This document shows, one piece after another, positions 14,780 through 37,782 of a stretch of DNA of 64,000 nt (its first letter is position 1; each line of letters starts with the position of its first letter). Made by a program: the position numbers and the translations under genes. The stretch lies in IMG/VR virus record IMGVR_UViG_642973540_000001, one strand, 5' to 3'. A model generated the notes under the pieces. The model was not told the origin of the DNA. It ran no database searches and worked only from the letters and a program-made list of their open reading frames with translations. The stretch comes from a virus. Taxonomy: Duplodnaviria; Heunggongvirae; Uroviricota; Caudoviricetes.

Positions 14780-16138
14780 ATGGCTTACACTCCAATTGTA
14801 AACGTGGACATTACACTGAACACAACTGGCTCTACACGTGAAGGTTTCGGTCTTCCATTGTTCCTTGCGGGGCATGATGCGTTTGAAGAGCGTGTTCGTG
14901 GTTACACATCTCTGAGTGAACTCGGTGAAGACTTCACCTCAGACTCCGCAGTGTATGCGGCTGCACAGGCTCTTTGGGCGCAAACTCCAAAGGTAACTCA
15001 ACTGTACATCGGTCGTCGTAACTTGCAGTATTCTCTGGCAATCCCAACTATCGGTTCTGCTGGTGACAACTACACGTTAACTGTGACAACCAATAACGGT
15101 GTGGTTGGTTCATACTCTGCTACTGGCGCAACAAACAGTACGGCTCAGACTATTCTTCAGTCTCTGAAGACAAGTATTGATACCGATACCACTGTTTCAC
15201 CAACTGTGTCAACAACTCTGTCAGGTACTGGTGCTAACGCCGTGTTGCTTATCACTGCTAAGGATGCTGATGTAGACTTTGCACGTGTGACAACTTCAGG
15301 TACTAACATCGTTATCTCTTCAACTGCTTCTGATTCTGCTGAACAGGCTGTTAAGCGTGTTGAAGATTATACTAACGATTGGTACTTCATTGCAACTGAT
15401 GAACGTAACGAAACGTTTGTTAAGGCAATGGCAGCGGCTATTCAGTCTCGTACCAAGTTGTTCTTCACAGCAACCGACTCTACAGCGGCACTGAGTGGTA
15501 CAAACATCAGTTCTGCAACAGACATCGGGGCTTATCTGGCAACTAACAAGATGACTCGTACAGTTCTTGTATGGCATGATGACGCTGAAAGCCAATACCC
15601 TGAAATGGCTTACATCGCTTACGGTGCTCCGTATGATGCAGGTTCTATCGCGTGGGGTAACGCAGTTCTGACAGGTATTGACTACTCTCGTCAGCCTACT
15701 AACAACCGTCCTCTGAACTCTACTCAGAAAGCTGCACTGGAAGCACGTAACACAAACTACGTGGACTATGAAGGTGGTAATAGCGTTATGCGTAGCGGTA
15801 AGACTGTTGGTGGTGAGTGGATTGACATCATGCGTGGTCGTGATTGGTTGGAATCTGACTTGAAATCTTCACTGAGAGACTTGCTTATCAATCAGAAGGG
15901 TGGTAAGATTACTTATGATGACCGTGGTATCACACGTGTTCGTCAGGTGATTGAATCCTCTCTTCAGAGAGCCGTTAACCGTGAGTTCTTGTCTAGCTTC
16001 ACTGTCACAATGCCAAAAGCTGCTGACATTGATGTTGCTGATAAACGTGCTCGTTTACTTCAAGGTGTTAAGTTCAGTGGTATCATCGCTGGCGCAATCT
16101 TGACTGTAAACTTGCAGGGTACTCTTTCTTATGAATAA
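14780..16138 (+). CDS. contractile tail sheath protein (P2 FI-like)
   Basis: 452 aa followed by tube, chaperone, TMP. Confidence 0.7.
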   Translation: MAYTPIVNVDITLNTTGSTREGFGLPLFLAGHDAFEERVRGYTSLSELGEDFTSDSAVYAAAQALWAQTPKVTQLYIGRRNLQYSLAIPTIGSAGDNYTLTVTTNNGVVGSYSATGATNSTAQTILQSLKTSIDTDTTVSPTVSTTLSGTGANAVLLITAKDADVDFARVTTSGTNIVISSTASDSAEQAVKRVEDYTNDWYFIATDERNETFVKAMAAAIQSRTKLFFTATDSTAALSGTNISSATDIGAYLATNKMTRTVLVWHDDAESQYPEMAYIAYGAPYDAGSIAWGNAVLTGIDYSRQPTNNRPLNSTQKAALEARNTNYVDYEGGNSVMRSGKTVGGEWIDIMRGRDWLESDLKSSLRDLLINQKGGKITYDDRGITRVRQVIESSLQRAVNREFLSSFTVTMPKAADIDVADKRARLLQGVKFSGIIAGAILTVNLQGTLSYE

Positions 16139-16153
16139 CGGTGGTAATAAATA

Positions 16154-16609
16154 ATGTCTCTTTTTCAACAGTATTCTCCAAAGGACGTTGTTTGTAGCTG
16201 GAACGGGATTGCAATCACTGGTTTCGCACCTGATTCATTCCTGCGACTGCAAAGAACGTCTGCACTGGTAACTCCAGTGGTCGGAGCGGGTGGGGATGTT
16301 GCCCTGACAAGAAACGCTGATAAGACAGGTACAATCGAAATCGAGTTGATGCAGACTGCGACTTCGAACTTGCGACTTGCGGCTATCTATGCAGAGCAGC
16401 AGTTGATGGAACTGGAAGAGAATATCTCTTCAAACTTCGTAATCTACGACCCATCAGGTTCTGTACTCGCTACAGGGCGTAACGCATGGCTTCAGGAACT
16501 TCCACAGGTTGAGCTTGGTGCTGACCAGAACTCCAAAACTTGGACGTTTGGTTGTGAACACCTTGACTACACTGTGACGATTCCAGCTTCAGGCATTACG
16601 TCTGTTTAA
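16154..16609 (+). CDS. tail tube protein (P2 FII-like)
   Basis: 151 aa after sheath. Confidence 0.65.
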   Translation: MSLFQQYSPKDVVCSWNGIAITGFAPDSFLRLQRTSALVTPVVGAGGDVALTRNADKTGTIEIELMQTATSNLRLAAIYAEQQLMELEENISSNFVIYDPSGSVLATGRNAWLQELPQVELGADQNSKTWTFGCEHLDYTVTIPASGITSV

Positions 16610-16625
16610 CCTTCAAGGGGTCTCT

Positions 16626-16643
16626 AAGGAGGCTCCTTTTTTG
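16626..16643 (+). terminator. weak terminator hairpin AAGG-aggct-CCTT + T6 after tube gene
   Basis: short stem, T-run; likely attenuator. Confidence 0.4.
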
Positions 16644-16666
16644 TTTCTATCTAAGGAAATTTGCAA

Positions 16667-17077
16667 ATGAAAACCGTAAAGAAATCTATCAATGACCGTG
16701 AAGTAAGCATTACCTTACTTGGCCTGAAAGATGGTGTCAATATCTCTCTGAAAATTGCGCGTGTAGCTGCACCTGCTTATGGACAGCTTATTGAAGCGTT
16801 CAGTAAAATCAAAGATGGTAAGAAAGACATCCCGATTAAAGACATCGTTCTGAACTGTCTGGACGCTATGGATGAGATGGACGTGAACTCTGTTCTTGAA
16901 AAACTCTTCGATGGTATGTTGGTCGATGACCGCCCAATGACCCTTGACCAAGCGTTTGCTGGTAACTATGGATTCATGTTGGATTGTGTAATCTTCGCAG
17001 TTGAAAAGAACTTCTCAAGTTTTTTCGAAGCAAGCATTTTCAAAAACCTGTTTTCAGAGTCGGAGATGGAGCAGTAA
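16667..17077 (+). CDS. tail assembly chaperone (gpE/gpG analogue), zero-frame product
   Basis: ATG 16667 with AAGGAAAT SD (track used TTG 16661); between tube and TMP. Confidence 0.6.
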   Translation: MKTVKKSINDREVSITLLGLKDGVNISLKIARVAAPAYGQLIEAFSKIKDGKKDIPIKDIVLNCLDAMDEMDVNSVLEKLFDGMLVDDRPMTLDQAFAGNYGFMLDCVIFAVEKNFSSFFEASIFKNLFSESEMEQ

Positions 17078-17310
17078 AATGCCCCCGAACTGAAGCGGCT
17101 GTAGATGAAGGTTATAAACCTGATGAGGCGACTAAGTTCGCCTTATATCTTTATGGCAATGAAGACTGTAAAGAGACCTACAGCCAAATCTTGGAAATGG
17201 CGTTTGTTGATGCGTGTGACCTGAGAGAATTCCTCGAAGTGAAGTCTTCATATAAAGAAGAGCAAGCCTATTATGAATACGTCAGGAACAAAGGTAAAGT
17301 ACAGAGGTAA
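16667..17310 (+). CDS. tail assembly chaperone -1 frameshift fusion product (gpE'/gpGT analogue); slippery site T TTT TTC at 17020-17026
   Basis: -1 frame open 17005-17310, ends 4 nt before TMP ATG; heptamer fits X XXY YYZ. Confidence 0.5.
17020..17026 (+). promoter_or_regulatory. programmed -1 ribosomal frameshift slippery heptamer TTTTTTC
   Basis: seen in sequence in zero frame of chaperone gene. Confidence 0.5.
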
Positions 17311-17313
17311 TTA

Positions 17314-19536
17314 ATGGCTAAGTACACAGTTGATGAATTCGTAATTGAGCTAGGCTTCAATGAAAAGGTCATCAAAGGTTTGCAAAGAGTTGAAAAAACA
17401 GCTATGGCTGCTGCAACTCGAATTGAAAACCGCCTCAATAAAGCTGTGACGATTGATGGGAACAAGTCTAAGGCTGGTTTCGATAAGATTGTCCGTAATG
17501 CTCAGACTGCCGCTAACAGTGTGAACAGAGCCTTTTCTAAGAGCATGGACTTTGGAAATGCTGGTAAGGCATCCGTTAAGGGCGTAGAAACGGCTGCTAG
17601 GGCTTCTGCAAAGCGTATTAAGAAAGAGATGCAGGATGCCTTTAACGTTCGTGGTAATGGGCGTGGAGGCGGTTCTGGAGGCTCTGGAGGGGGTAGACCT
17701 CCGAGAGGTGGTAACGGTGGTGGTGCAGGTGGTTCATCGAACTCCGCAGCACGCTCTATCGAGAGAACCTACTCAAACAACTACTACTCTGGTCTGACAC
17801 GTAAACTTGAAAGTATGGGTGTTCGTGGTCAAGGACTTGCTGGTAAATTCCGTTCTGACATTACAGGTCTTCGTGATGAAGCCTTGAAAAACCCTTCTGC
17901 TAACTTAGCAAACTACAACATGCAAATCAAGGCATCTATTGACTCGATGAAGCGTTGGATTTCTGCTGAGAATGCTGAAGCTAAAGCAAGACGTGAACAG
18001 ACATGGCTTCTTGACAGAGCTAACTCATCCCTTACACAATGGATTGGTGGCTTCGCTTCACTGTATACGGTGATTGAAGGAATCAAGAAAGTTGTTGATG
18101 CAGGTGTGGCACGTCAGGGTCAAATGCTCTCTGCACAGGCTGTCTTCAAAGGTCAGGCTGGCGATGCTAAAACGTTCGCTGCTGGATTCTCTCAGCAGAT
18201 TGGACAGGGCTTCACAGAGACTATGAAGCAGTATACCGGATTTGCTGCGGGTGCTCAAAACGCACTTGGTTATCAGGGTACACAGGACTTCTATAAGAAC
18301 GCTGCAACGTTTGGTCGTATTCGTGGTCTGGATGCTGAACAGTTGAAAGGTATCATGGTTGCGTTCACTCAAATGGCTTCTAAGGGTCGTGTACAAGCTG
18401 AAGAACTTCGTGGACAGTTGGGTGACCGTTTGCCCGGTGCTGAACAGATGTTCGCAGATGCTTTGGGTGTAAACACTCAGCAACTTGACGCACTGATGAA
18501 AAATGGTAAACTCCTTGCGAAAGACGTTCTTCCTCGCGTTTCTGAACAGATGAAGAAGATGTCTGATGAGGTTGGTGGTCTTGACCGTGTTTCTCAAATG
18601 GCTGTAACTGGTATCGGTCGTGTAAACGCTGCTATTGAGAACAACCTTGTAAAAGCCTTTGACGGTGCTGAAAGTGGGCTTGGGGTATTCACAAGTGCTC
18701 TGGCTAATATGCTTTCAGACTCAACAGCAATCAGTGAAGCTATGGGTGGTATCTTCGGGGAAATCCTGAAAGTCGCTGGTAGTGGTATTGACCATGTTGA
18801 TGAGTGGGTAAGACACATCTCTGCGGCTCTTCTGAGAATGTCTGCTTGGTATGATGAACTGGACGATGGACAGAAGAAACTTATCAAGTCTGCGGCTGAT
18901 TTCGCAATCGCTGTTGGTGAAGTTCTTGTTGTTGTTAAGGCTCTTCGCGGTGTCACTGGTATTATCTCTGCGGTTCTTGGACTCAAGCAACTTGCAACAG
19001 GTGGTGCAGGGGCAGCAGGTGCAGGAGCGGGAGCAGCGGGGGCTGGTGCAGCAGGTGGTGGTATCATGGCAAGAATCTTAGGATTCGCTAAAGGTGCTCC
19101 AAAGGCAGCGGGGCCGATTGGTTGGGCGTTAATGGCTAAGGCTGGTGTAGACGCTTCAGGTGTTGAACAGAATTACCCAACGCTGTTTGGTAAGGATAAC
19201 CCTATTGCCAAAGGTCTTAACTGGTTGACCGACCCTAAAACGTTAGGTTATCAGCAAGGAGACTCCCTGACAAACAGTCCATTCACAAGGATGATGGGTT
19301 CACTTGGTGATTGGTTGTCAGGTAACAACGCACTTTCTCCACAGAACGGGTATAGCCCACAGAACATGTTTGCTGTTCCAAGTATGTACAACCCTGCACA
19401 GCAGACTGTACAGAACAATCAGCGAATGACGTTCAACATCAACCTTGACAGTCGTAAGATTGGTGAATATCAGACAGAAGTTGTAACTCACAACAACGAA
19501 GATGTCAACATTAACACAGAGCACATGGGGGATTAA
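17314..19536 (+). CDS. tail tape measure protein
   Basis: 740 aa, Gly-rich and (GA)n low-complexity segments, position after chaperones. Confidence 0.8.
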   Translation: MAKYTVDEFVIELGFNEKVIKGLQRVEKTAMAAATRIENRLNKAVTIDGNKSKAGFDKIVRNAQTAANSVNRAFSKSMDFGNAGKASVKGVETAARASAKRIKKEMQDAFNVRGNGRGGGSGGSGGGRPPRGGNGGGAGGSSNSAARSIERTYSNNYYSGLTRKLESMGVRGQGLAGKFRSDITGLRDEALKNPSANLANYNMQIKASIDSMKRWISAENAEAKARREQTWLLDRANSSLTQWIGGFASLYTVIEGIKKVVDAGVARQGQMLSAQAVFKGQAGDAKTFAAGFSQQIGQGFTETMKQYTGFAAGAQNALGYQGTQDFYKNAATFGRIRGLDAEQLKGIMVAFTQMASKGRVQAEELRGQLGDRLPGAEQMFADALGVNTQQLDALMKNGKLLAKDVLPRVSEQMKKMSDEVGGLDRVSQMAVTGIGRVNAAIENNLVKAFDGAESGLGVFTSALANMLSDSTAISEAMGGIFGEILKVAGSGIDHVDEWVRHISAALLRMSAWYDELDDGQKKLIKSAADFAIAVGEVLVVVKALRGVTGIISAVLGLKQLATGGAGAAGAGAGAAGAGAAGGGIMARILGFAKGAPKAAGPIGWALMAKAGVDASGVEQNYPTLFGKDNPIAKGLNWLTDPKTLGYQQGDSLTNSPFTRMMGSLGDWLSGNNALSPQNGYSPQNMFAVPSMYNPAQQTVQNNQRMTFNINLDSRKIGEYQTEVVTHNNEDVNINTEHMGD

Positions 19537-36521: not shown

Positions 36522-37782
36522 TTGAATCCTTTTGAATTTGTAAGTAACGAGTCAGTATTTTACCGACCTTTTCAACGTTTGATTTGTGAATCAACTGCTT
36601 CTTAGTCTGAATATTGTCAGTTTCTTTGATAGCCTCAACCACCTCTGGAGAGAGCTTTCTTGTTTGACTGACAGCTTCAGCAAGCATGTTCATCTGAAGA
36701 TACGGGACTTTCTGTAGTCTCGCGTTGGCATCAGAAACACACGTCATACAAAGCGCATTCACGATAGCTTGGTTATTGAACTGGTTATGTTCCTCTAACC
36801 ATAGCGCAAGTCGATTAGCGCGACGTACAAACATACCATGAACACGATGATGTTGCTCTGCACAGAACTGAGTAGCGACCCTGACAGACTTTGGAGCACC
36901 GATTCTCTCAACGAATGACAGTAGGTCTCTAACATCAGATTCGTGTCCATGAAGATTTCCACGCTCCGATAGAGTAAGTCTTTTACCCATGTCGTGACAT
37001 AAGATGCACAGGGACTGAGTGACCCTATCACCACTATTCCATCCATATTGCGGTAACTCCACTTCTTCGTAATGTTTCAATGCGAGAACGGTATGGTTCA
37101 GCACATCACCTTCAGGGTGGTATTTCTTAGGCTGTCTTACACCCTTCATTCCTGAGATTTCAGGGAACAAATTGAACTTACCACAAAGGCTAACAAACTT
37201 CCAGAAGTTTTCAGCAGATGCTGCTTTCTCAATCTCTTTCCAGATACGCTCTTTCGGGAGATGAGCAAGACAGTTAGCCTCAATCATTTGACGGAACAGT
37301 GCTTTCGTTTCAGGCTCAATGAACAGGTTATGACGTGCAGCGAATCTTAAACCTCTTAGAATTCGGAGAGGGTCTTCTTTAAAGCGGTCTGCATCAACCA
37401 CACGAAGGATTCTGTGTGCCAAGTCGTAACGGCTCATTGGATGAGCACAAATCAACTCATCAGTGTTTGCACCACCATTCACCACAGCAGATGCACAAGC
37501 ATTGATAGTGAAGTCACGACGAAGTAAATCCTCATCAAGTGTGACACCATCAGTCTCAACTTCGAAGTCGTTGTAACCTTCACCTGTTGAGTTCTCACGA
37601 CGAGCCATAGCAATCTCTGTACCGTCATCGGTGATGAATACAGGGAAAGCCTTTCCAACCTTTTTCAGTCCCAAATCAAGAAGCTGTTCTTCAGTGGCAT
37701 TAACGACCACAAAATCGTGGTCTGATGACGCTTTACCGAAGACTGCATCCCTGATTGAACCACCAACCAAGAAGAAGTCCAT
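36514..37782 (-). CDS. cca: tRNA nucleotidyltransferase (CCA-adding enzyme) with HD domain
   Basis: GGSIRD...DHDF head-domain motifs, HDMGK HD motif; start at MDFF (37782) 5 nt after upstream stop with GAGG SD. Confidence 0.8.
   Translation of the reverse strand: MDFFLVGGSIRDAVFGKASSDHDFVVVNATEEQLLDLGLKKVGKAFPVFITDDGTEIAMARRENSTGEGYNDFEVETDGVTLDEDLLRRDFTINACASAVVNGGANTDELICAHPMSRYDLAHRILRVVDADRFKEDPLRILRGLRFAARHNLFIEPETKALFRQMIEANCLAHLPKERIWKEIEKAASAENFWKFVSLCGKFNLFPEISGMKGVRQPKKYHPEGDVLNHTVLALKHYEEVELPQYGWNSGDRVTQSLCILCHDMGKRLTLSERGNLHGHESDVRDLLSFVERIGAPKSVRVATQFCAEQHHRVHGMFVRRANRLALWLEEHNQFNNQAIVNALCMTCVSDANARLQKVPYLQMNMLAEAVSQTRKLSPEVVEAIKETDNIQTKKQLIHKSNVEKVGKILTRYLQIQKDSNA

Follow-up and report, generated by a model that had tools for sequence, protein, structure and literature searches.

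A conserved slippery site and a -1-frame extension of gp59 point to a gpG/gpGT-type tail assembly chaperone pair in Erwinia phage phiEa21-4

Background

Does the tail assembly chaperone gene of Erwinia phage phiEa21-4, gp59, specify a single protein, or does a -1 programmed ribosomal frameshift near its 3' end also yield a longer fusion, as in the gpG/gpGT pair of phage lambda? The question was raised by a 64,000-nt stretch of DNA (IMG/VR record IMGVR_UViG_642973540_000001; hereafter the window), for which an original prediction, made from the letters alone, had proposed an unannotated frameshift of this kind in the chaperone gene between the tail tube and tape-measure genes. The window belongs to phiEa21-4, a Felix O1-like myovirus (EU710883.1 / NC_011811.1; Ounavirinae, Kolesnikvirus): positions 16100-17400 are 100% identical to these records over their full length in a megablast comparison, and subtracting 20576 from an NC_011811.1 coordinate gives the window coordinate used throughout. 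Here we describe the geometry of the two reading frames, the evidence that the -1 frame is translated, the conservation of the slip site, and the explanations that compete with ribosomal frameshifting at this locus.

Reading frames and slippery site at the gp59 locus

The argument turns on four features, all on the given strand:

16667..17077, + strand: G-type tail assembly chaperone gp59, zero frame, 136 aa (PF21822, phrog_1613; 37243..37653 in NC_011811.1)
17005..17077, + strand: overlap in which the zero and -1 frames are both open and inside which any shift must fall
17020..17026, + strand: slippery heptamer T_TTT_TTC (six T at 17020-17025, C at 17026)
17026..17310, + strand: T-type extension in the -1 frame, 94 aa followed by TAA (RSKHFQKPVF...NKGKVQR)

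The gp59 open reading frame (ORF) runs from the ATG at 16667 to the TAA at 17075-17077. Its product matches the Pfam family PF21822 (Phage_TAC_15) with 74.9 bits against a gathering cut-off of 22 (E=1e-20), residues 9-123 aligning with profile positions 1-124 of 127, and matches phrog_1613 with E=2.4e-39. In the -1 frame a TGA at 17002-17004 marks the 5' limit, and no further stop occurs from 17005 until the TAA at 17308-17310 is reached; the frame overlaps G by 73 nt, and 3 nt separate its stop from the tape-measure ATG at 17314. Within this overlap the zero-frame codons AGT TTT TTC impose the phasing T_TTT_TTC, and this is the only in-phase heptamer of the form X_XXY_YYZ in the whole chaperone gene, the overlap containing no second one. 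The sequence C_AAA_AAC at 17041-17047 was considered as an alternative slip site in the overlap and rejected as not canonical. A shift at the heptamer would give a full GT product of 214 aa, join(16667..17026,17026..17310), which in NC_011811.1 corresponds to join(37243..37602,37602..37886). The gene end at 17077, the limits of the open -1 frame and the position and phase of the heptamer are all as originally predicted.

No ATG, GTG or TTG occurs in the -1 frame before 17191, the first start-like codons being a TTG at 17191 and an ATG at 17197. It is for this reason that the ORF listing of the window shows nothing in the -1 frame; the extension of about 95 aa that had been predicted to lack a start codon of its own does lack one and measures 94 aa.

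Coding capacity of the -1 frame

The simplest objection is that there is no second product, the -1 frame being open by chance, as the relic of a decayed gene, or through a sequencing indel that splits one gene; protein evidence is indeed absent, and the original annotators left 17078-17313 non-coding. A chance opening of this length is rare, since the 76 codons beyond the G stop remained stop-free in 19 of 20,000 dinucleotide-preserving shuffles (a probability of ~0.001), and in nine large genes taken from the window the -1 frame stays open for 58 codons at most. Shuffles and off-frame runs were used here in place of a count of '-1 ORFs spanning stop codons' over the window, which is contaminated by neighbouring genes that lie in the -1 frame. 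The 236-nt 'gap' that follows gp59 is also the largest among the tail genes, the other listed gaps being at most 87 nt and mostly below 25 nt.

The extension itself resembles known proteins. It matches phrog_4963 ('tail assembly chaperone') with E=1.7e-20, residues 23-98 aligning with profile positions 4-78 of 79, and tblastn recovered it in 297 phage records, each match covering at least 80% of the 94 aa and starting from the first residue past the heptamer. In Felixounavirus, Mooglevirus and Suspvirus these matches are ~46-50% identical to the extension; the figure for Pectobacterium phage Arno162 is 30%. Nucleotide differences are distributed as in a translated frame: in codon-aligned pairs, counting only the part beyond the G stop, differences at -1-frame codon positions 1/2/3 number 4/5/16 between phiEa21-4 and MM7, 8/5/23 between Felix O1 and SUSP1, and 10/6/21 between Felix O1 and Mordin. 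We conclude from these counts that purifying selection acts on the extension as read in the -1 frame.

Since the same two-frame layout recurs in the 297 independent phage records and in 43 of 43 related IMG/VR loci (see below), sequencing error is ruled out. Taken with the shuffle probability, the profile match and the pattern of substitutions, this recurrence has effectively refuted already the view that the -1 frame is an accident, a relic or an error, and we rate the probability that no second product exists as practically nil. The original prediction had named a lack of conservation of the -1 ORF in related phages as part of what would refute it, and conservation is what we found.

Other searches returned less. 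A profile built from six GT fusions found nothing among PDB sequences at E<=1, and zero NCBIfam models matched either the fusion or its T part. With the fusion as query, a large protein database returned only eight G proteins of 136-142 aa, from close relatives, and neither a fused product nor any T match, in a word-index search that is insensitive. The return of G alone fits the absence of the joined coding sequence from the six Kolesnikvirus records that we inspected (listed below) and says little beyond that.

Conservation of the slippery site

Fifteen loci were fetched; they stand for eight different phages that belong to at least four genera. All of them carry AGTTTTTTCGA in the same phase, and each has a -1 ORF of 92-94 codons that ends at the tape-measure start or a few bases from it. 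A broader sample was drawn from IMG/VR with peptide patterns lying 5' of the Phe-Phe site, a procedure that introduces no bias toward the heptamer. An in-phase TTTTTTC was present inside the overlap at every one of the 43 related loci so obtained, with extensions of 80 codons at one locus on a contig end and 83-103 codons at the others. The sample includes contigs of 57-65% GC whose G proteins are only 24-31% identical. In one high-GC clade Asp (GAT) has replaced Ser (AGT) in the position before Phe-Phe and the third-position T that belongs to the heptamer has nevertheless been kept, which indicates selection on the nucleotides themselves.

The same focus on the slip site is apparent in alignments. 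Invariant columns make up 23% of the G-T alignment of eight representatives as a whole and reach a peak of 81% over 21 nt centred on 17022; the 12-mer at 17017-17028 is invariant in all eight. When the 647-nt G-T region was used as the query of a sensitive blastn search, the only part that could be aligned with some 250 non-Kolesnikvirus records (Felixounavirus, Mooglevirus, Suspvirus) was 17009-17049, at 90-93% identity.

Separately, the 20 nt 3' of the heptamer (GAAGCAAGCATTTTCAAAAR) code in both frames; Arno162 and the more distant relatives have a different sequence there.

Proposed frameshift and competing explanations

The slip site of phiEa21-4 is orthologous to sites that others have annotated as frameshifts. 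The corresponding coding sequence (CDS) is recorded as a two-piece join in the Citrobacter phages Mordin and Michonne and in Salmonella phage Meda. The Michonne record carries the note 'ribosomal slippage (47149)', a position that maps to 17023 in the window, inside the T6 run; the Meda record reads 'Tape measure chaperone frameshift product', and the Mordin join has no note. The papers announcing the Moogle and Michonne genomes likewise state a chaperone frameshift, with reference to Xu et al. 2004 (PMC4319497, PMC4591319).

In its position, in the protein families of its two parts, in the heptamer found at 43 of 43 loci, in the selection on its -1 frame and in its orthology to annotated slippage, the locus agrees with the gpG/gpGT (P2 E/E') arrangement first suggested for it. 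We therefore consider it very probable that the gp59 locus of phiEa21-4 uses -1 programmed ribosomal frameshifting to express a pair of tail assembly chaperones of the gpG/gpGT type. Most ribosomes would stay in the zero frame throughout gp59, stop at the TAA at 17077 and yield the 136-aa G-type chaperone, the majority product. A minority would slip back by 1 nt with UUU-UUC of T_TTT_TTC in the P and A sites, both tRNA-Phe(GAA) re-pairing to UUU-UUU, and would then continue in the -1 frame as far as the TAA at 17310. The minority product would be a 214-aa GT fusion in which the 94-aa T domain follows the 120 N-terminal residues of G. If the lambda gpG/gpGT and P2 E/E+E' pairs are a guide, many copies of G and a few of GT may coat the tape-measure protein gp60, presumably the client of both; the T domain may initiate polymerisation of the tube by recruiting the tube protein gp58, and the two chaperones would depart before virion completion and be absent from the finished particle. 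We infer the slippage itself, its efficiency, the production and ratio of the two proteins and their binding partners from the sequence features set out above and from these analogies.

Several observations weigh against this account. The 100 nt downstream of the heptamer (17027-17126) fold no better than shuffled sequences (minimum free energy z=-0.87), and RNAalifold reports 0 conserved downstream pairs on the eight representatives; a stable, conserved fold of the kind that stimulates other -1 signals, a hairpin or pseudoknot 5-9 nt downstream, is not seen. Upstream, none of the motifs GAGG, GGAG, AGGA, GGNGG and AGGKG occurs in the 30 nt 5' of the phiEa21-4 heptamer; with a Shine-Dalgarno (SD)-like element missing, frameshift efficiency in this phage could be low. 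The literature that we searched gives no experiment demonstrating the fusion protein, in phiEa21-4 or in any Felix O1-like phage, and no report of a frameshift in phiEa21-4 itself was found there. Annotators of Felix O1 and other phages called T as a separate gene of 75-79 aa from an internal ATG, and the T6 run could in principle also support slippage by RNA polymerase. The last two points each correspond to a distinct explanation.

In the first, G and T are two separate genes, T being translated alone from an internal start with no frameshift, as the annotations of Felix O1 ORF66 and phiEa104 gp060 imply. Several records do contain stand-alone ORFs of 37-79 aa named 'tail assembly chaperone' (a stand-alone T ORF is called in Felix O1, SUSP1, Sf14, phiEa104, Omen and Fifi318), and the 79-position profile phrog_4963 was evidently built largely from such calls. 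A start at TTG 17191 or ATG 17197, however, would leave untranslated 55 codons that are conserved from genus to genus and show third-position bias. These codons, among them the invariant C-K of a CKE[TS] motif that sits 5' of the first possible -1 start in phiEa21-4, can be reached only by a change of frame, because the -1 frame offers no start until 17191. The position of the candidate internal start moreover varies by clade, Kolesnikvirus having none at the Felix O1 position, whereas protein similarity begins right after the heptamer in the 297 records. Independent translation of T from an internal start is thus exceedingly unlikely.

The second explanation places the slip in transcription: RNA polymerase would add one U on the T6 run, and ribosomes translating the altered mRNA in the normal way would arrive in the T frame. 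An added U does have the same effect on the downstream reading frame as a -1 ribosomal shift, the site is a homopolymeric run conserved as nucleotides, and productive transcriptional slippage is documented in bacteria (PMC5009743). The documented bacterial cases nevertheless involve runs of 9 A or T (PMC5009743), against 6 T here. At all 43 loci, furthermore, the run is phased as X_XXY_YYZ with a trailing C (UUU-UUC), and such phasing speaks against the polymerase because tRNA re-pairing depends on phase and slippage by the polymerase does not. Most relatives also place an SD-like element at a spacing that stimulates ribosomal -1 shifts (PMC4066793), and the homologous-style TTTTTTG site of P2 is treated as translational. 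On this evidence we regard polymerase slippage as very unlikely to account for the extension.

Ribosomal frameshifting at T_TTT_TTC has precedents as regards efficiency. In E. coli, heptamers of the type H_HH.U_UU.Y belong to the most efficient group, and U_UU.U_UU.C directs more than 0.1% frameshifting there without stimulators (PMC4066793). In relatives of phiEa21-4, an SD-like GGAGG or GAGG lies 14 nt 5' of the heptamer in 14 of 18 distinct sequence contexts, a spacing within the 6-17 nt stimulatory range of Sharma et al. (PMC4066793). The element occupies the positions 18-14 nt upstream (for example 1177-1181 in locus L007 and 1194-1198 in locus L004), equivalent to 17002-17006 of the window. 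It is absent from phiEa21-4, MM7 and the Hafnia SarahDanielle-like clade, in which GAAAAG or GAAGCG is found instead. Its loss in some clades suggests clade-specific tuning of frameshift efficiency. In phiEa21-4 we found no RNA element that could stimulate the shift, and therefore presume that a low, fixed ratio is set in this phage by the heptamer on its own. A terminator-like hairpin at 17123-17146 was examined as a possible stimulator and rejected, as it lies ~100 nt from the slip site, which is too far.

The phage also carries a gene for tRNA-Phe(GAA), at 2717-2791, and this is the tRNA species that would occupy both the P and the A site on T_TTT_TTC. The gene scores 40.7 bits, the lowest Rfam tRNA score among 26 matches; its anticodon loop, CUGAAAA, appears ordinary, with A36-A37-A38 present. 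One might speculate that this tRNA, through its abundance or modification, compensates for the missing SD-like element and sets the G:GT ratio, a notion that we think very unlikely to be right. If true, it would be a case of a phage-encoded tRNA controlling a programmed frameshift.

Comparison with known frameshift systems

The closest counterparts are found in the Felix O1-like phages Michonne, Mordin, Moogle and Meda, which share with phiEa21-4 the gene pair, the synteny (sheath, tube, terminator, chaperone, tape measure) and the heptamer AGTTTTTTCGA. In Michonne, Mordin and Meda the core AGTTTTTTCGA[AG]GCAAGCATTTTCAAAA is identical to that of phiEa21-4. The fusions of these relatives measure 212-213 aa, as against 214 aa in phiEa21-4, and the G and T parts of phiEa21-4 are only ~40-50% identical to those of the four phages. 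All four have an SD-like GGAGG 14 nt 5' of the motif, which phiEa21-4 lacks, and their -1 stop overlaps the tape-measure ATG, whereas in phiEa21-4 the -1 stop lies 3 nt before it.

More distant in sequence, and similar in layout, is the gpE / gpE+E' pair of P2 (Peduovirinae), also a myovirus with a contractile tail, in which the pair again lies between the tube and tape-measure genes. There too the -1 shift takes place on a T6-based heptamer, TTTTTTG, without downstream RNA structure (PMC3091744). The last base of the heptamer is C in phiEa21-4 and G in P2, and the P2 products are of 91 and 142 aa as against 136 and 214 aa. No sequence-family link between the two pairs was detected, the only Pfam match of the phiEa21-4 pair being Phage_TAC_15.

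In phage lambda the slippery heptamer is G_GGA_AAG. The gpG/gpGT pair of this siphovirus has no detectable sequence similarity to the pair of phiEa21-4 and follows the same logic of a common N-terminus, a low-level -1 shift and a fixed ratio, from which the roles suggested here for phiEa21-4 are drawn. The G part of the lambda proteins binds the tape measure and the T part the major tail (tube) protein, and mature virions contain neither G nor GT (PMC5009743). With the bacterial dnaX and IS911 signals phiEa21-4 has the X_XXY_YYZ heptamer in common; those signals include an upstream SD and a downstream hairpin, whereas phiEa21-4 has neither. Most of its relatives share with dnaX and IS911 an SD-like GGAGG or GAGG within the 6-17 nt stimulatory range.

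Annotation of related genomes

The frameshift had been called unannotated in the original prediction. That is true of phiEa21-4 and of the five other Kolesnikvirus records inspected, the GT join being present in none of the six (phiEa21-4, phiEa104, Omen, MM7, Fifi318 and Roscha1); it is not true of the subfamily, as Mordin, Michonne and Meda demonstrate. Since joins have been annotated or published in these sister phages, the feature is already known and phiEa21-4 presents an annotation gap only. NC_011811.1 lists gp59 (37243..37653) and gp60 and has no joined CDS; the correct feature would be join(37243..37602,37602..37886).

Three of the six Kolesnikvirus records contain only a fragment of 37-39 aa, called from an internal TTG or ATG and named 'tail assembly chaperone'. 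This short ORF is an artefact of homology-based naming that takes no account of the frameshift. The fragments lie at positions 1598-1711 of loci L002 and L003 and 1392-1511 of locus L059, equivalent to 17191/17197-17310 of the window, and represent the C-terminus of the T domain.

The practical value of the finding lies mainly in annotation, the six Kolesnikvirus records being without the 214-aa GT protein and having in its place either a false 236-nt gap or a meaningless 37-39 aa fragment. As phiEa21-4 is a candidate for biocontrol of fire blight, a complete list of its structural genes is of some use. The locus also adds one more well-documented case in which T_TTT_TTC is fixed across the very divergent Phage_TAC_15 family, even in genomes of 65% GC, and in which an upstream SD-like element is dispensable in some clades. 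Our understanding of tail assembly or of recoding is unchanged by it.

Gene context and other features of the window

The gp59 locus stands in a module with the order of a contractile tail: sheath, tube, chaperone, tape measure and then baseplate genes. The neighbouring features are:

14780..16138, + strand: tail sheath gene gp57 (phrog_205 tail sheath, E=1.9e-108; NC_011811.1 gives the same annotation)
16154..16609, + strand: tail tube gene gp58 (PF11681 KPP10_Orf10, E=5e-8; phrog_280, E=2.8e-44)
16615..16648, + strand: terminator-like hairpin followed by a T-run (consensus scan; 10-bp stem, then TTTTGTTTCT)
16653..16657, + strand: likely ribosome-binding site AAGGA, read from the sequence, 9 nt 5' of the ATG at 16667
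17314..19536, + strand: tape measure protein gp60 (PF20155 TMP_3, E=2.6e-18; phrog_4036, 1165.7 bits, E-value reported as 0)

The tube gene gp58 lies directly 5' of gp59, and its counterpart in phage Omen is labelled 'tail tube protein'. The site equivalent to the hairpin at 16615..16648 is labelled 'terminator' in Mordin, Meda and Michonne, and this hairpin, lying between the tube and chaperone genes, may cause the chaperone and tape-measure genes to be transcribed less than those for sheath and tube. The Mordin record annotates a ribosome-binding site at the place equivalent to AAGGA.

Two further tRNA genes of the window deserve mention. At 1247-1319, ARAGORN reports a tRNA-like gene with a 2-base anticodon, 'tt', that is, with an anticodon loop of 6 nt (UUUUGC, flanked by CAUGG and CCAUG); its score with the Rfam tRNA model is 50.2 bits, and it is entered as 'tRNA-OTHER' in NC_011811.1. 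At 1546-1617, the Rfam model identifies a tRNA with 53.7 bits that ARAGORN does not report and that the record annotates as tRNA-Glu.

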